A stretch of 64,000 nt of DNA from the NCBI GenBank assembly GCA_002269645.1, contig NIVC01003239.1, forward strand, positions 45,470 through 109,469, written 5' to 3'. The stretch comes from Macrostomum lignano (Eukaryota). The notes beneath the pieces were generated by a model. The model was not told where the DNA came from, searched no databases, and saw nothing but the letters and a program-made list of their open reading frames with translations. The translations under genes were made by a program, and so were the position numbers. This document shows positions 25,511-64,000 of this stretch, piece after piece. Each line of letters begins with the position of its first letter. Within the stretch, counting starts at the first letter, position 1.

Positions 25511-26857
25511 TCAGTCCGCAATCTGATAAACCATGTAAGCGAAGTCGCCTGCCTCGATGCCCTGCCGCTCCTCCGGCCGGGGGTTGTAGCCGGCGAAGCC
25601 GAGGAAAAGAAGCGTCTTGAGCAGAGCGTCTGCAATTCCGGTTATATAGCTCTGGTGCTCAACTACTGTTAGAGGCTTAATCCGATCATTTAAGTGGTAG
25701 CTTAGAGATTAAGTAATCTTCTAATCCCTGTAGCATAGAGATCAGGTAATCTGCTAATCCTTGTAGCTTAGAGATTAAGTAATCTTCTAATCCTTGTAGC
25801 ATAGAGATTAGGTAATCTGCTAATCCTTGTAGCTTAGAGATTAAGTAATCTTCTAATCCTTGTAGCATAGAGATTAGGTAATCTGCTAATCCTTGTAGCT
25901 TAGAGATTAAGTAATCTTCTAATCCTTGTAGCTTAGAGATTAGGTAATCTGCTAATCCTTGTAGCTTAGAGATTAAGTAATCTTCTAATCCTTGTAGCTT
26001 AGAGATTAGGTAATCTGCTAATCATTGTAGCTTAGAGATTAAGTAATCTTCTAATCCTTGTAGCTTAGAGATTAGGTAATCTGCTAATCCTTGTAGCTTA
26101 GAGACTAAGTAATCTTCTAATCCTTGTAGCTTAGAGATTAGGTAATCTGCTAATCTTTGTGGCTTAGAGATTAGGTAATTTCCTAATCCTTGTAGCTTAG
26201 AGATTAGGTAATTTCCTAATCCTTGTAGCTTAGACATTAGGTAATCTGCTAATCTTTGTGGCTTATAGATTGATATATCTGCTAATCCCTGTAATTCAAA
26301 TATGACACATGCCAATCTCTGTGATAGCTTGGAAGCTCTGAATCCCGCTAATTTTCCAGCTTCGTACGAGTAGTTATTCGATTTTATGGTGTCTGAGAGC
26401 TGTTTGATGTTAGATTTGAAATGTGAAAACCGAAGCTGCATATAATAGATGCTGACTGACTCACCTTTATCCTGCCTTCGCCGACTTACACCCAGCAGCA
26501 CACGGTCGCACTGGAGCTCCTCTTCAGCAAACTCCAGCATGTCCGTCAGCTGCTGCTTCAGCCGCTCGCCCAGCTGGTCGCCCTCGGTGACGAACAGCGC
26601 CATTGTCTGGCGCTGGCCAGCACCGGGTAGCAACGTGTAAGCGAGTGGCTGACCGCCCACCCCGACCGCAAATCCAGATTGACGGCCGGCATAAGCAGAC
26701 GACTCTTGGCTAACATGGGTGACAGGGGGCTTGTCGAGTGCCCCCAGGCCGCTGCCCTCTGTCAACTGTGCGCTGACTGTGGCGGCCCGGGGAGCATCAA
26801 AAACCCTGCGAAGGCCCGGCAGGCGGACGGGAGCAAAAATCGCTCAGTTCACTATTC
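25511..26857 (-). CDS. OAZ: Ornithine decarboxylase antizyme, decoded by +1 ribosomal frameshift; first exon uncertain
   Basis: Exon 26857-26465 carries the ORF1 end (NSELSDFCSRPPAGPSQGF, TTT TGA at 26802-26797) and ORF2 in the +1 frame (DAPRAA...DMLEFAEEELQCDRVLL). Exon 25629-25511 encodes DALLKTLLFLGF...AYMVYQIAD*. Splice phases agree. Candidate AATAAA at 25315-25310. Confidence 0.93.
25700..26290. repeat. 33-bp minisatellite (antizyme last intron)
   Basis: Unit gcttagagattaggtaatctgctaatccttgta; two variants alternate in part of the array. Confidence 0.94.
26720..26802 (-). promoter_or_regulatory. Antizyme +1 frameshift site (UUU-UGA) with predicted 3' RNA pseudoknot
   Basis: Stem 1: 26795-26782 pairs with 26752-26740 (13 bp, 2 GU, 1 bulge). 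Stem 2: 26764-26754 pairs with 26730-26720 (10 of 11 bp). Pairings read by eye. Confidence 0.8.
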
Positions 26858-44500: not shown

Positions 44501-47500
44501 CTGCTGCTGCTCGGGAAGCCAGGCAACGGGCTGAACGAATCGCTGCCCTGGGACGAGCTCGCGTGGCCGGGACCGGCGCCGCCAAAGCTAGCGCTGCTGC
44601 TGGCGCCGACGAAGCCGACGCTGTCGTGCTCGGAGAGGTCAAGGTCATCCAGCTCTGGTAGCATGGCGCTGCTAGGAGACGCCAGCTGGTTCTGCTGTTG
44701 GCCAGCTCTGTGCAGACCGCTGGCTGCAGTGAAAAACGAATAGAGGCGCAGAATGTACCAAAGTCAAGAGTCAGAATCCTACTTGCTGCTTTTTTATGGA
44801 ATTTATCGATTTTTCTCGCCTGTAGTGAGGGGATTGTAGCCTAGTGGTTAGAGCGTTGGACTCACGACTCAAAAGTCGGGGGTTCGATTTTCGACCCACT
44901 CGGAACAATTTGTGTCTAGGGATTGCAAAATCCCGGTTTTTAGCGATCCCGGGATCAGAAAAACACAGATTTTTCAGCTTTTGGGTTGAAATTTCAAGGC
45001 AAAATATGCTCTAAATGTATTTTTGCTTCCATTTTTTATTGTAATAGACATAATGATCTTTTCGTAGATGAAAAACAGCATTATCTTGTGACGTATTTAA
45101 GAAAGTAGTATAAAAGCACTAATTAGTAGTAAAGAAGCAAATCATATATCAATATTTCACATTTAAATCTGTGATGCGGGGTTTAAAAAGGCGCCACGCG
45201 ACGTGAGGCAATTAACGGAAATTAGCGCAGTATAATAAACTTGTTGTGGGCCCAATTATGTTCATATTACAACACTTTTTGTAAAAATAATAACAAAAAT
45301 TAGTCCCGGGATTTGGGCCCAATCCCGGAATTTCGGGATCATGGGATCCCGGGATTGCAATCCCTATTTGTGTCCTTGAGCAAGGCACTTAACTCTGCAT
45401 TGCTTCAGTTCACCCAGCTGTAAAATGGGTGCCAGCATTAGCTGGGGTAGTTGAGGCTGTGTGTGGCGACCCCCAGTCCCCAGTGTCTTTAAACTAACAG
45501 CCGTACGCAGCCTTCAGATGCGCCGCGCAATAGCTGCGGCTGAGCTGTCGGTTGCACATCTGTCCATTATAGAAGGTGTAACCAATTTTTTTGTTTCATT
45601 ATCGCTTGTATGTTGTAACTAATGGGTGCAACCTATTTATCAAAACCACTTGTCCGCGTTATTTCACTCCCTAGTAGGTGGTTAGTGCATTGACATCCGG
45701 TCCGAACTTGTCCCCGTCACGTCCCCGAGACCTGTCTACGTGTAGCATTGAAACCCGTGAGCCGTACGTGGAAGCTTAGAAATCTGGATAGTTTGATGGG
45801 TGGCTAAACAGCTACTTGCACCGAATAGAAATTTACTCTACTAGGAGCAGCAATTAAGCAATTGAAGCCAAACCTCGATTGCCGCCAACCGCTGCGGATT
45901 GCTCCCACACGCTCGGGCTGATGAGACGGCCCAGTGTCAGAGGTGCAGGTCCCGTCGCCTGCTGTTGCTGCTGCTGCTGCGGCTGCTGCTGCTGCTGCAG
46001 ATGAAGCTGCGGCAGCTGCGGTGATTGTTGCTGCTGCACAGCGCCCAGCATCAGCAGGCCCATGTCCTGCATAAAGTTCCGCCCGAAGTTCATCTCCGAC
46101 TCCTCGTGGGCGAAGGCGCAGAACGGACCCCTTGGACAGTAGTTCTGCTGCATGACATCGTTGCACTTTGTCGACTTATAAATCTGCGCGAGGGTACGTT
46201 GGCAAGAAAATTCGCGTCTATCTACTGACAGTAGAATAAAAAACGTGTGTATTTCATTAACAATCACAAGTAAAATCAGCGCCGTCAAGTCAGCTGACGA
46301 GATACAGTCACGTGATTTATTGCTTTCGCCCTTAAACGCTAAATGGAAGAACACGGATCTGCGGCGCTCACCTCTGGGTGGAACTGCTGCTCGGTGCGGG
46401 TGTGGCAATACTGACAGTCGTCGGCCTGCTCGCAGAGGCTGCTGTCAAGCCATTCGTCCGAGCTCTTCACTGCCGGACAGGGAGTTGATCTGCGATTTGG
46501 AATAAGAAGGGAGAGGTAATTGTCCAGGCTGAAGTCAATTGTCTGCGGACTGAACTGCGCGACTGGAACTAGTTTGACTGGGCCTTTGTGTATTTACTGG
46601 GTGGAAGAGTGAGAGATTGAGTAGCTAAGCGTGGATGGCGAGAATGGAGAAAGGGCAATCGATTTTTCGAAATACAGAGCCCCATCAATCGATACCATTT
46701 CGTTGACTAAATTCATCTCGAATAGTGCCATACCGATGCAAGGTAAGGACATCCATCTAGCCTGTTAATAATATCAACAAGGAAGTGCAGGTCAATTTGA
46801 TGAATTCCCTGCCGGAACAAATGGAACATACTCGTGCCTCCAATTAAACTGTGAATCGTGTCAGCTGCCTTGCACTTTATCAGGTCGCTACGTATATCTC
46901 TATTTATTAAGCCACACCATGCGCGCATGCATCTTGTTAAGTTTGAAGTGCAGCTAATGGGGGAGCTGACAGCACACTGAATCAAGCAGTGGATATCGCA
47001 CTTCACTACACTGTACAGTTTGATAAGAGTACAGCTTTGGAAGGGGGAAGAAGGAGCAGGGGAGAGAGGGCTTAGCAGCTTTAGATTCGTAAGTTAGAGC
47101 CGGGCAAACCCGGACAGTCGCTCTGTGGCTAGTATTTATTGATTTTTCCGCCGCTGGCTGCGCAAGCCTCGCCTCCCCCCTCTGCCCGGTCGGACCGAAC
47201 CAGCCCCCCCCCCAGTGCTCATCGATCCGCGCTGCATTTGGGGTTGCTGTATACGGGGCTCTAAAAATAGATTTTCGTAAAGCAGGGCGACGGAAAGAGC
47301 GTCAGTTCGTATTTGGGGCTGGGGGAGGGGGCAAGGGCTGAAGCGGCGAGAGAGGAAAGACAGTTCAATAAGCTGTCAGACCTGTACAGCCCCGCTCACT
47401 GCGTTCAACAACAACCAACCAGCTGTACGTCCGCGTTCTGCACCCCCTTTCTCCGTCCTCTCATTCGGCTCTTGTAGTTCCAACCAAGTATTCATTTCTT

Positions 47501-49298
47501 TGCCATATAATCTCTCACCCTCCCCTCTGTTCGCATGCTCAAGGCCTAAGCCAGGGAGGCCTCCTCCTTCGCGAAATGAAAACAGAAAAAGCTTTTGAAG
47601 GGGGGAGAGGTAGGGGATGAAGATGAATCGAAAGAGCTTTGCTGACGGAAGCATCTTTTCCGGCTTCCCGCCCGAATATGCATTTGGCCGTACTGCATGC
47701 GCCTTATAGATAAGACTGCTTCGGATTGCACTCAAAATCCAAATTCCTATAGTGCAAGCTACCTAGGAAATTGCATGCAAGGGGTACGGACACCCTGATT
47801 CCACCGCCTCTGCTGGACAACAGGATTAGTATTGACCGAGATTTTTCTAGTAAAAGCACAGCAGGACGACAATGCTATTCGCAAAAAATTAGAAATTAAA
47901 AAAACCGTTTAAAGAAGACAAACTTATAGTTTAGCTTGTGTTGCCGATGGTCATCTAAGCTGAGAAAGTTATGCGCCAATCGCTAATCAAACAAGCGTCA
48001 AACTGGGTGGACAAGGAAGATATATTTAACAAAGTCTTTGTTTTGATTCGTTACTTCCGTGTTCTATCAGTGGTGCTAGGCTCACAGGCTACGTACACGG
48101 GCACAGCACTCACGCAGAGTTTATAGACTTCCATGACACACGTACACTTCTAGTGTGCCTTTATAATATGCACCTCACTGGACCTTGATCACACTCACCT
48201 GTACTTGTGCACGTGCGGTCCCCGACGCTTGTCCTTGGCGTTGTGATAGAATGGACAGGCGTAGCCCTGACGGCACATTCGCGGCGGCTTGCGGCACTGC
48301 TCGGTTTTGTAGTTGGCCAGCACATAGCCCATGTCGTTCCATTTGGGATCTTCGGACAGGACACGCTCTTTCTCCAGGCTGGCCGGCAAGTTCACAGGAC
48401 AGTCGGCGGCCTCTTGAACTTCGCGGATGTCGTAAACAGGCACGCGCAGATCGTTGGCGCCGTGAGCAAAGGCGCAGTGGGCACCATTTCGTGAGCAGTG
48501 ACCTCGGGCGTCCGTGTCGTGAATGCAGGTGCCGGTTTTAAAGTAGCGCAGATGGTAGCGCCTCTCAGTGTCGCCGGCATTTCGGTGCAGGTAGGGACAA
48601 GCGTCGGCGTTGGGGCACTCCCCTCGGGTCTCGTCGTACTTGTCGCAATACACATCAGGCGAATAAGTGAAAGTTCCGTCCGCTTTGCGCAATGGGCGAC
48701 GCCGGCGCTGATTTGGAAAATGCCAATGAAAGCAGGTGAACGGCTTATGCTGCGTGCACTTATGATTCGCAAACAGTGGGCACTGCTGAGTGCGGAAGTC
48801 GCGGAGATAACTGCAATTTGTCAGAAAAAATAAAAAATTAGTAAAGATCCACATATTGGTATGCATGATACAACATTTACAAAGGTTTGGAACAATTGGA
48901 ACTGCACATTGCAAAAAGTAGTGCAAAAATTTGTTAAAACAAAACGAAAAGTCTCTATGGTAATAAAAATAAATTTATAGCATTTTGTCTCTCAATTATT
49001 TTTTAAAACTACTATCAAAATACTTTTAACAGAAACTATTCTGCCCCTGACAAATATATGAAAAAGTTAAAAAAAATGTGAATTAATTTTTGTTTCAATG
49101 TAGCTTAAACATTTGTTTATATTCTTTATCTAATTTTACTCACAAAACTAATTAAAATGTTAAATGTTAAAACAATATAAAAGCTCAGCCATTAAATCAG
49201 AAAGTAAATCCATAATTATAGATAAGCAAAACAGCAAAATAATGAATTTAAACTGAGACTTACTTTAAATGTTGTGGTTTTACAAAAACAGTTGGCAT
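41535..49298 (-). CDS. UNK: Unkempt CCCH zinc-finger RNA-binding protein
   Basis: Phase-consistent exons 49298-49264, 48810-48199, 46489-46372, 46183-45874, 44723-44296, 42587-42216 and 41945-41535. Motifs KPQHLNYLRDFRTQQC, FTCFHWHFPNQRRRRP, YHLRYFKTGTC, YKTEQCRKPPRMCRQGYACPFYHN and CHTRTEQQFHPEIYKSTKCND, followed by a poly-Q linker and coiled coil. Confidence 0.96.
43086..44262. repeat. 18-bp minisatellite (unkempt intron 5)
   Basis: Unit gatgccagctacagaggg, about 65 copies with an internal block duplication. Confidence 0.96.
44829..45592 (+). mobile_element. tRNA-derived SINE copy 2, interrupted by a MITE
   Basis: Full tRNA-like head (A box, ttggactcacgactcaa arm, B box ggttcgatt). Body resumes at 45367 and matches copy 1. 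Confidence 0.87.
44917..45366. mobile_element. 450-bp hAT-type MITE
   Basis: 12-bp perfect TIR TAGGGATTGCAA. 8-bp TSD TTTGTGTC at 44909-44916 and 45367-45374. Subterminal atcccgg repeats. Confidence 0.93.
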
Positions 49299-53226: not shown

Positions 53227-56200
53227 ATGGCTGAAAAAGGCGACAATGATGATCTGGTCCCGGAGGACACTGGCTTCAAGCCGCCGGCGCCAAAGTCTCT
53301 GGACGAGATTCTCAACGCCGACAAGGACGATCCGTCCCTTGAGAATTATAAAAAGCAACTGCTCGGCAACACTGTGCCGCCTGTGTTTCCTGACAATCCT
53401 AGAAATGTGATTGTGCAGAAAATACAGATTGAATTCCTAGGCGAAAGCCGCGAGCCAGCCAACATCCAACTGATGGATGCGGATCTGTCAGTGCTTAAAA
53501 AGTCACCAATCGTGATCAAAGAAGGGGTAAATTATCGGGTGAAAGTGTTTTTCTATGTGCAACGTGAGATCGTGGCCGGTTTGCGGTACATCAACTGTTC
53601 GTACAAGATGGGCATACGAGGTGAGTTGCCCATAATGTTAGTGTGAATGCGAGTATCTAATCTAAGAAGATTCCTATCAATAAGCTGCCCCTAATCCCCC
53701 AGAAAAGTTGCCATTTGACTGCCACTAATCCTTCAGAAGTGTTGCTACTAGACTGCCACTTATCCTCCAGAAGAGTTCCCATTGGACTGGCACAAATCCT
53801 CAAGAATATTAGCCATTAGACTGGCACTAATACCCCATAAGAGTCGTCTATAGACTGGCACTAATACCCCATAAGAGTCGTCATTAGACTGGCACTAATA
53901 CCCCATAAGAGTCATCATTAGACTGGCACTAATACCCCATAAGAGTCGTCATTAGACTGGCACTAATACCCCATAAGAGTCGTCATTAGACTGGCACTAA
54001 TACCCCATAAGAGTCGTCATTAGACTGGCACTAATACCCCATAAGAGTCGTCATTAGACTGGCACTAATACCCCATAAGAGTCGTCATTAGACTGGCACT
54101 AATACCCCATAAGAGTCGTCATTAGACTGGCACTAATACCCCATAAGAGTCGTCATTAGACTGGCACTAATACCCCATAGAGTCGTCATTAGACTGGCAC
54201 TAATACCCCATAGAGTCGTCATTAGACTGGCACTAATACCCCATAAGAGTCGTCATTAGACTGGCACTAATACCCCATAAGAGTCGTCATTAGACTGGCA
54301 CTAATACCCCATAGAGTCGTCATTAGACTGGCACTAATACCCCATAGAGTCGTCATTAGACTGGCACTAATACCCCATAGAGTCGTCATTAGACTGGCAC
54401 TAATACCCCATAAGAGTCGTCATTAGACTGGCACTAATACCCCATAAGAGTCGTCATTAGACTGGCACTAATACCCCATAAGAGTCGTCATTAGACTGGC
54501 ACTAATACCCCATAAGAGTCGTCATTAGACTGGCACTAATACCCCATAGAGTCGTCATTAGACTGGCACTAATACCCCATAGAGTCGTCATTAGACTGGC
54601 ACTAATACCCCATAAGAGTCGTCATTAGACTGGCACTAATACCCCATAAGAGTCGTCATTAGACTGGCACTAATACCCCATAAGAGTCGTCATTAGACTG
54701 GCACTAATCCTCTAAAAGAGAGCCATTAGACTGGCACTAATCCTCTCAACGAGAGCCATTATACTGGCACTAATCCTCTAAAAGAGAGCCATTATACTGG
54801 CACTAATCCTCTAAAAGAGAGCCATTAGGCTGGCACTAATCCTCTAAAAGAGAGCCATTATACTGGCACTAATCCTCTAAAAGAGAGCCATTAGGCTGGC
54901 ACTAATACCCCATAAGAGTCGACATTAGACTGGCACTAATCCTCTCAAAGAGAGCCATTAGACTGGCACTAATCCTCTAAAAGAGAGCCATTATACTGGC
55001 ACTAATCATCTAAAAGAGAGCCATTAGGCTGGCACTAATCCTCTAAAAGAGAGCCATTAGACTGGCACTAATACCCCATAAGAGTCGTCATTAGACTGGC
55101 ACTAATACCCCATAAGAGTCGTCATTAGACTGGCACTAATACCCCATAAGAGTCGTCATTAGACTGGCACTAATACCCCATAAGAGTCGTCATTAGACTG
55201 GCATCCTCTCAAAGAGAGCCATTAGACTGGCATAGAAATTCTAAGCCATAGAAAAGTGCTTATTAAACGCAGCTGAAAGGAGAACGCAAAAAAGAAGTGT
55301 GTGCACAGAGTAGAAAATTTTGTATAATACTCGTAAAAAACCAACGTAACACTACAGCAATGCACATTTGGCATGACTCAAGTTCGTGTTCAGGTTGGCA
55401 ATATAGCAGAGTGTTAAGTGTGAAGCCTTAGTGTGAAGTGCTTGGGCTGTACAATGTGTAGAGTTATATGTAGTGTCCTGTGACCAGTTTAGATATTCTC
55501 TGAGCGTTTACGTGTATGGCAAATTTAGTAATCTGGCATATAATATAGCTTCAATGCGCAGTGTTTGCTTAGCAGCTGGCACAGTGGCATTATCTGTCCC
55601 AACTTTAATAGGCACAAATGAACAACTGCCGCGTCAAGTTGTATGCAATGCATTGACTTATTAAGTATGTTAACGTTTTAGTAAAGTACGTAGATTCTAA
55701 TAAATAGAGTCCCAGCCTTGACCAGCTAGCTAGCTCACTCACTGCTCAGCACCACAGCTACATAAACCCTAGATTAGTTCACCCTGGTTCCGATAGTTAT
55801 GCTTATTCCAAGGGCAGAAATAGAGGAGCTGTTTTTAGAACAATATTGCCAGAAACAAACTAAAAAAACATTTAGTAGATGATCAAATAAAGACAATAGA
55901 CAAAAAATTTAGAACAAACACAAAATTACCTATGAGTTAATGCAGAGTGACCTATCATTTAATATTGCTTTTGTCATGCTAAGTCAGCAAACAGACATTC
56001 AAAGTTGAAAGCCTACATAACAAACTCAGGTGGGGCCATAGACAACACACAAACTTGCAATTTAGCACTGACGTTAATCAACTCATTTACTGTGAAATAT
56101 AAACTGCAAGTTTATGTGCTGTCTATGGCCCAACCTGTGTTTGATCTGTAGGCTTTCAACTTTCGATGACCGTAGATGACCTTGACATGACAAATTTTGG

Positions 56201-56452
56201 ATGACCTGTGCTCGGCGCACCCCTAGCAATGACTCACTTAACTGTCCCTCAGTTGCCAAGGACGACCTGATGGTTGGCAGCTACCCCCCGAAGGCCGAGC
56301 CGCACGTGTACAGCAGCCCGGCACAAGAGGCTCCCAGCGGCATGATGGCCCGCGGCACTTACACTATAAAGTCGCGCTTTACCGACGATGACAGGAACGA
56401 CTTCTTGTCCTGGGAGTGGGCCATCAAGATCAAGGACTCGTGGAAGGACTGA
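53227..56452 (+). CDS. ARHGDI: Rho GDP-dissociation inhibitor
   Basis: Exons 53227-53620 and 56253-56452 (phase 1). Motifs FKPPAPKSLDEILNADKDDPSLENYKKQLLG, IKEGVNYRVK, EIVAGLRY, MVGSYPPK, EAPSGMMARGTY and WEWAIKIKDSW. Confidence 0.97.
53690..55222. repeat. 34-bp (33-bp variant) minisatellite in the RhoGDI intron
   Basis: Unit cattagactggcactaataccccataagagtcgt, about 45 copies, with degenerate flanks and a second variant at about 54710-55060. Confidence 0.96.
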
Positions 56453-57771: not shown

Positions 57772-59024
57772 ATGGGGAAATGGAAAGGTAAGCCGTTTCA
57801 TTCGTTTTTTGGGTAAATGTCACTCAGGGATCTTTTTCGCTACTAGGAGTCACATTAAAAGTACTTTTGCGTGTACTTTTCCAGACTGTTCTAGACTTGC
57901 CTGCGTGCCGGCCCTGTTCTGCATCTACACTGCCTACCTGTACACCCTCGCCACTGTCTACAGGCCAGCCATTGCTGAGAATCAGTTAAAAGGCAGCAAA
58001 AAGTGAGTTAGGCTGTTTTGTTCAGTTTTTTGCACTTCTTCAGATTTACTAAATAGTTTGTTTATTGGGGTTAACCAGTGTGCTTCCAGTGTGCTTCAGC
58101 CACTTCCCATCAGCTTCCAGTGTGCTGCAGCCACTTCCCATCAGCTTCCAGTGTGCTGCAGCCACTTCCTATCAGCTTCCAGTGTGCTGCAGCCACCCCA
58201 TCAGCTTCCAGTGTGCTGCAGCCACTTCCTATCAGCTTCCAGTGTGCTTCAGCCACTTCCCATCAGCTTCCAGTGTGCTTCAGCCACTTCCCATCAGCTT
58301 CCAGTGTGCTTCAGCCACTTCCCATCAGCTTCCAGTGTGCTGCAGCCACTTCCTATCAGCTTCCAGTGTGCTGCAGTCACTTCCCATCAGCTTCCAGTGT
58401 GCTGCAGCCACTTCCCATCAGCTTCCAGTGTGCTGCAGCCACTTCCCATCAGCTTCCAGTGTGCTGCAGCCACTTTCCATCAGCTTCCAGTGTGCTGCAG
58501 CCACTTCCCATCAGCTTCCAGTGTGCTTCAGCCACTTCCCATCAGCTTTCAGTGTGCTGCAGCCACTTCCCATCAGCTTCCAGTGTGCTGCAGCCACTTC
58601 CCATCAGCTTCCAGTGTGCTGCAGCCACTTCCCATCAGCTTCCAGTGTGCTGCAGCCACTTCCCATCAGCTTCCAGTGTGCAGCAGCCAGTGGACAGAGT
58701 GTACGCTATCACTGCCTGAGAAAGAGATAGTGATGCTCCACTGTACACACAGTACACTAGCTGGACTGAAAAGACGCAAGCATACACCTTCCTATCTCCT
58801 AGAGCCGCCTCAATTGCAGCCAGAGTTATCAGACTCAAAACTGGCTTCTCTATGCTCAAATTTGCAGTGCCGAAATGAGATTTCCAACCAGCCTGGCCGA
58901 TCTCAACCAGTTAGCCAGCTTATTGAAGGCATTCAAAGACGACCATCCCGGCTATGTGTTTGTGCTATTCTGCAGTGCCTACGTCTATAAACAGTGCTTC
59001 GCCATTCCTGGCTCCGTTTTTATG
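57772..59024 (+). CDS. TMEM41A: TMEM41A (VTT/DedA family) 5' exons; remainder not in window
   Basis: Phase-consistent exons 57772-57787, 57885-58002 and 58868-59024. MRFPTSLADLNQLASLLKAFKDDHPGYVFVLFCSAYVYKQCFAIPGSVFM matches my recollection of TMEM41A (FPSDLAEL...[21 protein letters not shown]). Confidence 0.85.
58078..58686. repeat. 31-bp minisatellite (TMEM41A intron 2)
   Basis: Unit cagccacttcccatcagcttccagtgtgctg, about 19 copies. Confidence 0.95.
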
Positions 59025-59212
59025 GTTAGAGCTGCTGCTGCAGTGCTCGCGTTACTGTGACTTCCCCTGCTTCTTAGTCCCAAATTTTCTAAGCTTGAAT
59101 CCCTCAGTCTGTCAATCTCGCTCATCAATTGTCGGTTTTCAACTTGTCTTCAATTTTTAAAAATCTTACTTAGATTCTCATCAATATTTTATTAAACCAC
59201 TAAATGTCGTCT

Positions 59213-59847
59213 AGATTCCCAACAATCTCACCCAGATTCCCAACAATCTCACCCAGATTCCCAACAATCTCACCCAGATTCCCAACAATCTCACCCAGAT
59301 TCCCAACAATCTCACCCAGATTCCCAACAATCTCACCCAGATTCCCAACAATCTCACCCAGATTCCCAACAATCTCATCCAGATTCCCAACAATCTCACC
59401 CAGATTCCCAACAATCTCACCCAGATTCCCAACAATCTCACCCAGATTCTCAACAATCTCACCCAGATTCCCAACAATCTCACCCAGATTCTCAACAATC
59501 TCACCCAGATTCCCAAAAATCTCAGCTAGATTCCGAACAAGCTCACCCAGATTCCCAACAAGCTCACCCAGATTCCCAAAAATCTCACCCAGATTCTCAA
59601 CAACCTCACCCAGATTCCCAAAAATCTCACCCAGATTCTCAACAACCTCACCCAGATTCCCAAAAATCTCACCCAGATTCCCACAAATCTCACCCAGATT
59701 CCCAAAAATCTCACCCAGATTCCCACAAATCTCACCCAGATTCTCAACAATCTCATCCAGATTCCCAACAATCTCACCCAGATTCCCAACAATCTCACCC
59801 AGATTCCCAACAATCTCACCCAGATTCTCAACAATCTCACCCAGATT
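59213..59847. repeat. 21-bp minisatellite (TMEM41A intron 3), cut off by the Polinton end
   Basis: Unit agattcccaacaatctcaccc, about 30 copies. The last unit stops at ...ccagatt, directly before AGTAGT. Confidence 0.95.
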
Positions 59848-60526
59848 AGTAGTATAGAAAAAGACGCTTCTAGACCCAGAGCACTTTTTTAATGACCGTT
59901 TTAAGGGTCTAGAGGGGGGACACGGGGGGTAAATAAAAAAACACATCTAAACACCCTTAACACATCTAATCACCCATAATCACCCCTGACAATAAAAATC
60001 ATTCCCAACACTTCCAAACACTCCCCAACACTCCCTCGCGTCCCCCCTCTTAAGACCTTACAAACGGTCATTAAAATAAGGTCTGATCTAGAAGCGTCTT
60101 TTTATATACTACTACTCTATAACCCCTTGCCCGCGCCGCAGGCGCGAAGGGTCACAAAAGAGTTTAAACTGAGTCATGGTAATAGTAACACTCAACAAAA
60201 AATTACTCTCATAGCCACTATTGGCTAGCTTGCAAAATCTTGCCGTAGCAGGAATTGAACGCCCACTCAGCCATCCAACTCTATAAAAACCACAGCCATC
60301 AACCCAGTTCTAGCTCATCTCTCAGGAAGAAGAAGACAGGCTCCGCGCGTCACAAGTAAAATGGGGTGCCCACCATCAATGAATAAGTTTTTAACAAATC
60401 GTCCAGAAAAATTCTGGACGTCCAGAAAAAAATGACTCAATGCAGTATATACACCATCTTGGGTTGAAAAATATTCTTTTGTGTGTTCTCGTATTCTTTT
60501 TTTCTGTTACTAAAAATAGAACAAAA

Positions 60527-60925
60527 ATGACACACGTTACACATGTGCAAAATATAAATGAGTATCAGGTAGGAGATCCAATTGAATACCGAGGTGAGGG
60601 ACTTTTTGATTTGGTTGGAACAGCAGCAAATTTTGTTAAAGACAATATGGGGCTTATAGGGCAAGCTGGCTCTGCAGCAGGCTCTATAACAAATGCTGTA
60701 AAAGGAGGAATTGAAGCAGCTAGAGCGGCAGAAGAACTAAAGAAATTGAGAGATTTTAACGACACCCTCTCACAAATAAATGCAATAAAAGATTTAAAGC
60801 TGGCACAAGCCGCACAACCAACAGAAACCCCCACGAAAACCACGCCAATAAGTAATAAAGATATTCAGGATTTTAATAAAATGTTAAATACTATTAAAGG
60901 TGGAAAAGGATTAAAGAAATTTTAA
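60527..60925 (+). CDS. Putative virion core/membrane-lytic precursor (pVI-like by analogy)
   Basis: 132 aa from the AAAAATG at 60527. YRGEG followed by the amphipathic-looking LFDLVGTAANFVKDN; C-terminal IKGGKGLKKF resembles adenain-type cleavage motifs. Confidence 0.55.
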   Translation: MTHVTHVQNINEYQVGDPIEYRGEGLFDLVGTAANFVKDNMGLIGQAGSAAGSITNAVKGGIEAARAAEELKKLRDFNDTLSQINAIKDLKLAQAAQPTETPTKTTPISNKDIQDFNKMLNTIKGGKGLKKF

Positions 60926-60935
60926 CAATATAAAA

Positions 60936-61929
60936 ATGGACTCAGTTAATGATGATGAAAACCGGTTATATTTTATAGGAGAAATTGTAGATACCTTAAA
61001 TCTTGATGATAATAAGCAAACCCACACAATGTTAAAAAGATTGGATCGATTAGGTAAAAAGTTTGACTACGACATCGATACATTTAAACTCGCAGCAAAA
61101 TATGCACAAGAAGGAAGGCCAATATCCTTTAAGAATCGCGGCAGAAATTATAGGTTGACAGACTCCGATGTGAAATTTTTAATGGAGACTCACACTAAAA
61201 AGGACGGCGGATTACTACCCATTCTACCGCTTCTTTTAGGACTTGGCGCAGCTGGAGCAGTCGGTTTAGCCGGAAAAAGAATTCATGATAATGTAAAACA
61301 GCTAGGAGAGTTAAGAGCGAAACAGGGGGGAATCTTGCCCCTTGCAGCTTTGCTCCCAATAATTTTTGCAGGAATTGGAGCAGCTGGAGGAGTTGCTGGC
61401 GGAGCAGCTGGAATTGCAAAAGCAGTAAATGACAAAAAAGCTGCGGACGAAAAAGCTAAAAGAGAGGCCGAATTTCAAAGACAGCAAATAACGCAGGACG
61501 CACAATTCAAACAGAAACTTATTGATACCATTAATAGTAGTTCAGCAACAGCAGAGCAAAAAAGAAATGCAGAAGCTAGGTTAGCAGCCGGAAAAGGTTT
61601 ACTCTTGCAAGGAACAAATCACGGAATGGTTTGGTACTAAAAGGAACAACCCAAGGAAGTGGAGTTGTCGCAGATAAACTACATGAATTTGGCCAAACTT
61701 TAGAAAAAACGGGTGAGAAAGCTAAAGGATTTTTGACAATATTGGATCCAATTTTAGGCCAGCAGTTCAGAAGATTTTTACTAAGTTAGGAAAAGATTTT
61801 AACATCATTGAAAAACACGACGGAAGCGGATTATATCTCGAAATGCGACCAAAAGCAGGTTCAGGAATTTTCTTAAATTCAAATGTTATGGGCAATGGAT
61901 TGCTATTACCAAAAGCAGATCTCGAATAG
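60936..61929 (+). CDS. Adenovirus pX-like core protein with GxGLxL repeats (two -1 frameshifts in this sequence)
   Basis: The ORF to 61640 has KDGGLLPILPLLLG and KQGGILPLAALLPIIFAGIGAAGGVAGGAAGIAKAVND. Shifts at about 61625 and 61732 continue into HGNGLVL, DGSGLYL, AGSGIFL and MGNGLLL, ending at a stop at 61929. Confidence 0.75.
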
Positions 61930-62009
61930 ACTCCGGGGGTGGGTCAAGACACCAAAAACGCAAATTAAAAATCAATAATTCAAACATTATATAAATTTTA
62001 TTCTATAAA

Positions 62010-64000
62010 ATGGAAGCAATTTTAGCTCAAATCGACAACCCTGAACTTAGAGCACAATTAATAGCTCAAATCGATGCACAACGAATTGCCGATAGGGCTG
62101 AAATAGAAGCAAGAATTAGGGCAGAAAATGAGATACGTTTAGAAAGACAATTAAATGATATTAATAACCCCAACCACAAGGACAAAATGGAGCTGAAGTA
62201 ATATATATAGATATAGATATAAATACAAATTATAAAGAATATTTTAAACAAATGAAAGATAAATTAAAGACTATATTAAACAATTATACTATAAGGCCAA
62301 ATAACAAACGACAGCCAATTAAGTATAAAATAGAAGTTGAAACAGAATTTAAAAAACCAAATATTCTTAATGCAAATTCAGAAATTGAAGTAATAAATAA
62401 CTTTTCACAAGAATCATATAAAACATTATTATCAATGGGAAATTACAACAATCAATTCGATCAAATAGAAGCTGAGTTTGATGAATGGATAGATAAGATG
62501 ACAGAAAACGGATCTGGGTTTATATTTGTATCTTGTAATTCAGCAATAGTAAAGATTGCACCTATAGAAATTCTTAAAGGACGATCACATATGAAGCTCA
62601 AATTTAAATCACCTATGATTATAAATCCAGACAATAAAGATAATAAATGTTTATTATGGTGTTTATTAATTCATAAATATCACAATCAAGTAGAATCACA
62701 CATTAATAAAATATATAATTATAGACAATATGAGGATGAAATAATAATGAAAAACATATCATACCCAGTAGCAATAGATGATATATATAAGATTGAAAAA
62801 ATGAATGGTTTAAATATTAATGTTTTTACAATTGAAGAACCAGAAGATCTAGAAGAAATTCAGCAGGTCGATCCAGAATGGTATAAGAAAAGGTGTTATC
62901 TTGTTAAGCCAGCAACTGATATAACAGCACCAGATCAAATCGATCTTTTGTACATGCAGCGCGAAAATGAAACACATTATATATACATAAAAGATATTAG
63001 TTCTTTTTTAAGAGAAAATAGAAATAGATATCCACTATGTAGAAATTGTTTTACATTTAAAAAGGATGAAACAGCTCTTAAAAACCACCAACGATTTTGT
63101 TTAGATCACAAATTTACTAATGCTATAATGCCAGCATCTTCAGATGCAACCCTAAAGTTCCAACAACATTATATGGCAGTTAAAAAACCAATAGTAATAT
63201 ATGCTGATTTTGAAGCAACAAATGTTCCTTAAAAGAATCACAGACGGCATCTGATGACGGTCATGCAAAGCATGCGACCCTACGGGACGGTGAATGCACA
63301 AAAAAATTAGCACAACAGTTTCCTAATAGTTATTGTTTATATGTACACTCGTAGCTGATCATATATTTAAATCAAGGATGATTACTTACCACGGTAATGA
63401 TGCAGCTAAGCACATGGCAGAATCATTAGTAAATGTATTTGAATATATTCAAAATCAATATGATAAATTATCAAAAAATATTAATATGACAAATAAGGAT
63501 AGAGACAATTATAAAAATGCAACAAATTGTTTTATGTGCAAAAGATATTTAAGTAAGAAAATAAGATACGAGAACATTGTCATCTAACGGGAAAATATCG
63601 AGGGGCAGCATGTAGATCATGTAATGCAAAAGAAGGAAAAGGATGTAAGGAAATACCAGTATTTTTTCATAATGGTTCCGGATATGATTTTCATTTCTTA
63701 GTTCGAGAATTGCTTCATTTAGGAAAGGATGAATATGAAATAAATATATTACCTAAAACATCAGAAAATTACATATCAATAACATATGGTAAGAAATACT
63801 CCCATCTAGTTTTTCTAGATTCCTTGAGATTCTTATCAACATCTTTAGCAAATGTTGTTTCATCATTAGTTCCAAAACCATGGATTTAGAAATAGTAAAG
63901 AAAAACTTTCCAATACTATTGAATCGTTTCAAAAAGGAAAAACTATCCGAGGAAGAACTAATGCTATTAACTCGTAAGGGCATCTACCCATATGAATATG
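62010..64000 (+). CDS. Protein-primed family-B DNA polymerase (N-terminal region, exonuclease, inserted EndoVII-like Zn module); five -1 frameshifts
   Basis: ENGSGF, NKDNKCLLWC, YPV..DDI.KIEK.N.LNINVF, THYIYIKD, IYADFE (ExoI), HCHLTGKYRGAACRSCN, PVFFHNGSGYDFHF (ExoII), FLDSLRFL and LLTRKGIYPYEY, read across shifts at about 62170, 63229, 63348, 63570 and 63875. Confidence 0.9.

Follow-up and report, generated by a model that had tools for sequence, protein, structure and literature searches.

The 64,000 bp of Macrostomum lignano DNA analysed here (the window) are the final 64 kb of contig C3239, which stops at position 64000, 4,153 bp into a mobile element of the Polinton type. We read this element as a young Polinton whose broken reading frames are sequencing errors and whose phospholipase-integrase gene, lying beyond the window, is interrupted by an intron that would be removed by RNA-catalysed splicing; to this account as a whole we give a probability of roughly two in three. 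A broader statement, for which we put the chances at about even, is that active Polintons carried self-splicing group I introns into protein genes of animal chromosomes in dozens of copies, that two co-resident families trade introns at a single phospholipase codon via a restriction-enzyme-like homing endonuclease, and that the commonest form is a working ribozyme ending in A, possibly throttling the phospholipase-integrase polyprotein. What appears to be new, judging from sequence, is the A-ending group I-type intron in an animal Polinton.

At its start the integrase frame of this family encodes the latter half of a phospholipase A2 (PLA2) of parvovirus type. This fusion recurs in 39 of 120 relatives among the matches listed, none of them informatively named. 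The intron site lies in the calcium-binding loop of the phospholipase, which is split by 303 bp; in this insertion they lie at G000:C4308:11301-11603. All 18 loci that cover the site carry an insertion, 14 of them of one type (type A, 300-333 nt) and four of another (type B). Of 35 metagenome loci in which a phospholipase helix is visible, 34 read through the loop (25 recognised by pattern and nine by eye, 81 having been examined), and relatives have no extra residues in it. The 303-bp insert gives a partial match to the Rfam model RF00028, with an E-value of 1e-6 and a score of 38.3 bits.

In the P3-P7 core of type A the guanosine-binding G-C pair is present. Specifically, P7 is a perfect helix of 5 bp that occurs in four different sequences (33 of the 35 introns parsed), P3 is maintained through compensatory and wobble changes, and the core helices covary. 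P1 contains a U·G pair and five guide pairs in all three intron types considered below, the internal guide sequence changing together with the exon end from one type to the next. The last base of the intron is fixed by the P9.0 pairing and in type A is an A: this base was found at 50 places, and G, the base expected under the omega-G criterion, at none. Not a single substitution separates the 14 type A loci in the guide, P4, P6 and P7, and a type A copy diverged by 10% retains both the terminal A and the paired core. We hold it to be very highly probable that the intron is derived from group I, as a non-canonical member with an atypical end.

The coding sequence on both sides of the insert is conserved. 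The ratio of non-synonymous to synonymous polymorphism (pN/pS) is 0.11 over the last 38 codons of exon 1 and 0.09 over the 57 codons between the intron and the first Met of the downstream frame, a Met after which 325 codons remain. The catalytic motif is intact in all ten copies scored, four of the 14 having been dropped for local frame breaks. Because exon 1 alone would give a stub of 42-53 residues, the phospholipase needs splicing, and the selected codons on the two sides would matter only in a spliced message. Given that the core helices covary and that both phospholipase halves are conserved, splicing is likely; that the type A intron is spliced in vivo is the prediction we consider probable.

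In the mechanism that we propose, the element would copy itself by its own polymerase, insert by its own integrase and perhaps pass through particles. The first step of splicing would employ free guanosine at the P7 site and should proceed normally, since the guanosine-binding pair is intact. The second step would require that the terminal A be accepted, probably slowly or with the help of a protein. The product would be a single phospholipase and integrase polyprotein, probably cut by the protease of the element at what we take to be its glycine-rich sites.

Type B introns (L013:5790-6114 and three more loci) have exon flanks of their own, whose fixed differences from the type A exons are confined to 46 nt on the upstream side and 36 nt on the downstream side; this looks like homing with a co-conversion tract from a diverged donor. 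The genome also houses a second Polinton family (G000:C67:350600-369400 and 27 further places), which differs from the window's family in gene order and is 55-60% identical to it in the integrase and about 25% in the capsid protein. Its introns exceed the Rfam cut-off in 28 of 28 scored genome matches. All 17 that were fetched occupy the same phospholipase codon, and the 16 parsed are 836-895 nt long and end in G. The loop before P3 encloses a gene with a match over cut-off to RE_Eco47II (PF09553), and around P9 the intron has 25 bases identical to those of type A. Homing by this endonuclease-bearing intron would explain the occurrence of three intron types at one codon.

The homing endonuclease could be the product of that intron gene or of an adjacent HNH-like gene, which stands free just upstream of the intron-bearing gene (L069:563-1060). 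Relatives of the latter (29-36% identity) adjoin related introns in two viral contigs (L214, L216), an arrangement that suggests collaborative homing. At one of the 18 loci the HNH-like gene appeared fused to the phospholipase exon; this was treated as a frame error. In two metagenome contigs (L131, L187) this phospholipase codon likewise holds a group I-type intron, ending in G in both, with two further states of P7. In addition, six IMG/VR contigs (L214-L219), two of them labelled as giant-virus metagenome-assembled genomes, contain introns 72-84% identical in the central domain, and in one of the six two full group I introns follow each other in tandem. Viral contigs of this kind are a possible source of the introns; the exact core motif of type A was sought in the viral contigs and not found.

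That the element is a Polinton is practically certain; it belongs to a capsid-encoding family of about 18 kb. The genome contains 119 exact copies of the 34-bp terminus, corresponding to about 60 insertions, some of them duplicates. Stretches with two ends measure 17.3-19.0 kb and have terminal repeats of 306 bp. The 6-mers flanking left ends match in 13 of 31 cases one of the 24 found at right ends, 0.18 matches being expected by chance. Two-ended contigs were nevertheless rejected as representing whole elements: left and right flanks agree in just one of the six such stretches in which both are visible, and the assembler often merges halves of different insertions. At two places (G000:C1307:52497-52765 and C3750:62471-62739) termini face each other about 270 bp apart, and these may be either solo terminal hairpins or miniature derivatives. 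The features of the window that concern the element and its insertion site are the following.

58915..59024 (start approximate), + strand: exon of a host gene for a VTT-domain membrane protein, with a donor GT at 59025.
59213..59847, no strand: tandem repeat with 21-bp units within the host intron, into which the element inserted; the same repeat resumes past the right end of the element.
59842..59847, + strand: left copy of the 6-bp target-site duplication; the identical 6 bp follow the right terminus.
59848..60153, + strand: left terminal inverted repeat of 306 bp, with an internal hairpin (arms 59843-59874 and 60087-60118).
60154..60498, + strand: variable stretch of 345 bp inside of the left repeat; other copies have a different stretch of about 150 bp.
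60527..60925, + strand: open reading frame 1 (ORF1), 132 amino acids, unbroken, no Pfam family.
60936..61929, + strand: pX-like gene with breaks at about 61622 and 61729; Adeno_PX match with an E-value of 0.003, below cut-off.
62010..64000, + strand: 5' half of a gene for a protein-primed DNA polymerase B (pPolB), truncated by the contig end.

The variable stretch is present in 36 loci and missing in 21 (duplicates included), and the joint 60153-60499 is seen in the short-read contigs of four runs out of four. Its interpretation as an intron was rejected, as the skip occurs in DNA copies; in the window part of the element no second intron was found when one was sought. ORF1 likely encodes a small core or membrane-active protein. 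Its frame is unbroken in 23 of 30 copies (pN/pS 0.22), that of the pX-like gene (324 amino acids) in nine of 30 (pN/pS 0.11), and a natural polymerase frame of 1,327 amino acids in one of 29, all these counts being lower bounds, with compensating indels in variable stretches scored as breaks. The polymerase piece 63557-63886 matches DNA_pol_B_2 (PF03175, over cut-off) and Endonuclease_7, that is, an inserted HNH/EndoVII domain. The full-length natural frame matches Endonuclease_7 alone in Pfam, and a search of the PDB with it found nothing. The PF03175 match, one sign of the polymerase classes of Alpha- and Beta-type adintoviruses, is thus confined to a fragment. Relatives of the polymerase number at least 5,188 at E-values up to 1e-30, the best having 53% identity, and one bears the name DNA-directed DNA polymerase.

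The sequence-only reading, made from the letters of the window, had proposed a young, virus-like element that would continue past the contig end. The integrase, ATPase, protease and capsid genes, the right repeat and the 6-bp target duplication were indeed all located. In particular, the right half continues the polymerase gene and adds genes for a fibre-like protein (682 amino acids, so labelled by inference), a protease, a putative minor capsid protein (261 amino acids, adjoining the ATPase), a packaging ATPase of the A32 type (Pox_A32 match over cut-off), a major capsid protein, the HNH-like protein and the integrase. The protease is adenain-like: it reaches an atlas score of 0.95 to Peptidase_C5 clusters, with a recognition value just under the guide value, and the presumed His and Cys motifs share a frame in 19 of 21 copies; Pfam and PDB searches with it gave no match. 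The capsid protein of 490 amino acids folds as a double jelly-roll (predicted local distance difference test, pLDDT, of the model 59), and the best Foldseek matches of the model are iridovirus, PBCV-1 and virophage capsids, with E-values down to 6e-14 in the PDB. Its sequence is distant, with three word-search relatives at 42-49% and about 10% identity to the structural matches; pN/pS is 0.12. The integrase matches PF00665 (rve) with an E-value of 1e-7, 0.2-0.3 bit below cut-off, and the profile of its family matches foamy-virus integrase at 2e-11. Apart from the intron, the family is a further member of a familiar group, with a divergent capsid.

The element is located in the intron directly after the host exon 58915..59024. 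The right terminus followed by the window's 6-bp duplication has a single match in the genome, on contig C4308, where the same 21-bp repeat comes next and then the next host exon; in this matching right end the capsid, ATPase and integrase frames are unbroken. That second exon matches VTT_dom with an E-value of 2.9e-5, below cut-off. The placement inside a TMEM41A intron proposed earlier accordingly stands as far as a VTT-domain host gene is concerned, and the name, TMEM41-like or TMEM41A, is the one that we presume for it. Two copies of the host gene that are 97% identical to it keep an empty intron of 600 bp, so the insertion is recent. It is one of about 60 young insertions of a family under purifying selection, youth having been suggested by the sequence-only reading as well. 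Elsewhere, on G000:C4508:3060-3157, 98 bp of this 21-bp repeat lie before a left end whose outer flank is different, either a second insertion into that repeat or a mis-join.

The host is an animal, with 86 Wnt matches in the genome. A Wnt exon lies on contig C393 together with an A-ending intron, and another on contig C67 with a second-family intron; the introns therefore sit in the animal's own sequence. The remainder of the window (1-59847) is very dense in minisatellites, with 70 Tandem Repeats Finder rows, many apparently intronic. It includes host genes for an ornithine decarboxylase antizyme (26025-26843, - strand), a protein with unkempt-like zinc fingers (45857-48974, - strand) and a Rho GDP-dissociation inhibitor (56186-56449, + strand). 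Host genes are present in two to four near-identical copies.

The frames of the window copy are interrupted at seven places, at about 61622 and 61729 in the pX-like gene and at about 62167, 63226, 63350, 63557 and 63881 in the polymerase gene. Twenty copies were aligned over the window stretch, each being classed against the commonest state of every column. Over 4,153 bp the window copy differs from the 19 others by nine one-base gaps, two two-base gaps and no one-base insertion; besides the seven coding gaps, there are non-coding ones at about 60031, 60522, 61934 and 61964. Five of the coding gaps are private to the window, one is common to two of the 20 copies and one (62167) to four, and six adjoin a run of the same letter. 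The fragments of the frames overlap end to end, no in-frame stop lies between the breaks and the window copy has no stop allele. The alignment thus agrees with what had been read from the letters, namely seven single missing bases, several of them in homopolymers, and no nonsense substitution; of the positions given then, 63570 and 63875 miss the aligned ones by 13 and 6 bases.

The locus is assembled a second time in contig C5098, which over 19,666 columns (19.7 kb) shows 0 substitutions and 28 gap bases. The last 4 kb of the window contig contain ten of its gaps, and the first 3.3 kb of C5098 contain eight; in both, the gaps crowd toward the contig's own end. Six of the seven coding breaks are missing from C5098, and the gap at 62167 is found in it and in two other copies. 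At six sites the extra base is present in the short-read contigs of all four runs, which come from four studies; at about 63349, where many contigs are clipped, three of the four runs have it. Since rare variants are dropped, these contigs report the state of the family and not that of this copy.

The indel pattern extends to the family as a whole. Across 14 genes, 39 copies and 346 kb compared (the 10%-diverged copy being left out), one-base deletions outnumber one-base insertions by 524 to 53. In the same tally 601 synonymous and 349 non-synonymous alleles give a pN/pS of 0.16, and six stop alleles are observed against 169 expected at the synonymous rate. Such a deletion excess with few stops points to consensus error on functional copies, unlike neutral decay. 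It is very likely that the breaks are errors of the long-read consensus or assembly, as the sequence-only reading had supposed from their one-sidedness; the duplicate assembly, which differs by gaps only, and the short reads speak in the same sense. The full pPolB and the pX-like protein of about 330 residues that it had envisaged exist as frames of the family; this copy itself may or may not be intact.

Several observations weigh against our account. Splicing is a prediction from DNA, and the conservation of the phospholipase could partly predate a loss of splicing. Type A scores under the Rfam gathering cut-off of 50 and has no terminal G, its fold is weakly better than that of shuffled sequences (z -1.95), and at E-values up to 0.1 Rfam detects neither type B nor the diverged copy of type A, nor either of the metagenome introns. 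The likeliest 3' site of type B would add one residue to the loop. As regards the rest of the element, the model of the putative minor capsid protein (pLDDT 34) does not confirm a single jelly-roll fold, the 62167 break is in both assemblies of the window locus, and the right half on C4308 has breaks of its own and an interior that may derive from other copies. A Polinton equally young, with breaks equally due to error, might carry in its A-ending intron a ribozyme that is dead or almost so, with the integrase made from an internal Met and the phospholipase dispensable or supplied by other families. The missing G and the low Rfam score would fit such an element, as would the 325 codons available after the Met and a second family with a canonical intron in the same genome. 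We nonetheless judge it unlikely, because selection on the phospholipase halves is as strong as on capsid genes, the guide, P4, P6 and P7 are unchanged among 14 loci, and the diverged copy keeps its A together with a paired core. Removal of the intron at another 3' site, or by the host spliceosome, seems very improbable to us. There is an in-frame G nine bases upstream of the predicted end, and type B appears to gain a residue at the junction; that G, though, is inside the P9 stem, the P9.0 pairing indicates the A, relatives have no extra loop residues, and the intron ends are not GT..AG.

A further alternative to the account that we prefer is that some or all of the breaks are real, the insertion being in decay or an internally deleted, non-autonomous copy. 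Besides the recurrence of the 62167 gap in other copies, it draws on the fact that C5098 runs into an element short of about 7 kb, including the capsid genes, and that short-read contigs are blind to a variant private to one of 60 copies. The right part of C5098, on the other hand, ends in a foreign flank without the duplication and therefore comes from another locus, six of the seven breaks are missing from C5098, long runs of the 62167 class are one base short in 12-21% of copies, and the matching right end has unbroken capsid, ATPase and integrase frames. Real breaks are on balance improbable. It is more improbable still, to a degree that we regard as extreme, that the elements with the intron come from a protist sequenced along with the animal, or from a free virus, and not from animal chromosomes. 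The closest relatives of the integrase, capsid and intron are unnamed environmental or giant-virus sequences, as such an origin would lead one to expect; against it stand the target duplication that flanks the insertion in a host gene of which the other copies lack the element, the contigs shared with Wnt exons, and 20 runs of seven studies under one organism label, which contain 66-75% of the words.

The gene set is that by which adintoviruses are defined (Starrett et al. 2021, PMC8502044). Like Polintons and adintoviruses as described there, the element has terminal inverted repeats, a 6-bp duplication, pPolB, an rve integrase and a packaging ATPase, together with an adenain-like protease, a double jelly-roll capsid and pX-like and PLA2-like genes. 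It differs in that the PLA2 domain is fused to the integrase and not, as in the adintoviruses described, to pX, and in that its capsid is far from those reported; self-splicing introns are unmentioned in the main text of that paper. A polymerase with an inserted HNH nuclease domain (Endonuclease_7) is also a trait of the pPolB2 Polintons of nematodes and oomycetes, as presented by Jeong et al. (2023, PMC10748475). The likeness seen is one of domain; the best relatives of the present polymerase are unnamed (50-53%), and those from spider, sea anemone and mussel reach 40-43%.

As for introns, the account of Bulzu et al. (2025, PMC12220804), in its accessible portions, places group I introns of polinton-like viruses only in a cryptophyte, a green alga and Paulinella. 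These too interrupt protein genes of integrated elements and are about 300-380 nt long, but they occupy a short gene adjoining the capsid gene and not a phospholipase-integrase gene in an animal host, and they are unlike the present case of three intron types at one codon, one with a homing endonuclease. An animal group I intron without terminal G has a precedent in the hexacoral mitochondrial intron ND5-717, for which ligation of the exons in vivo, at lower efficiency, is described by Chi et al. (2019, PMC6545197). That intron is mitochondrial, obligatory and vertically inherited, whereas the present ones reside in the nucleus, in a mobile element, and are exchanged between copies. Nuclear group I introns are confined to rRNA genes of microbial eukaryotes in the overview of Hedberg and Johansen (2013, PMC3679873), as far as its accessible text extends. 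Those introns have the same core architecture and carry endonuclease genes in peripheral loops such as P2; the endonuclease found here differs in being Eco47II-like (PF09553). Group I introns in animal Polintons go unreported in the accessible parts of PMC10748475, PMC11296320 and bioRxiv 2025.04.19.649669, and no report of them in animal Polintons or animal chromosomes was found in a literature search in which subscription papers were mostly out of reach.

A lesson of method is that Polinton genes found in fragments in a long-read assembly may owe this to error, which duplicate contigs reveal. The family is, moreover, a clear example of a capsid-encoding Polinton that is young and under selection, and as such useful for asking about particle formation. 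If our reading is true, the range of group I introns, which in the sources cited covers rRNA genes of microbes (PMC3679873) and integrated protist viruses (PMC12220804), would extend to animal chromatin. At least 50 such introns, plus the 28 of the second family, would then reside in mobile protein genes of one animal genome, and would provide a natural experiment on the function of a ribozyme intron in an animal transcript and on the way in which a terminal A is accommodated.

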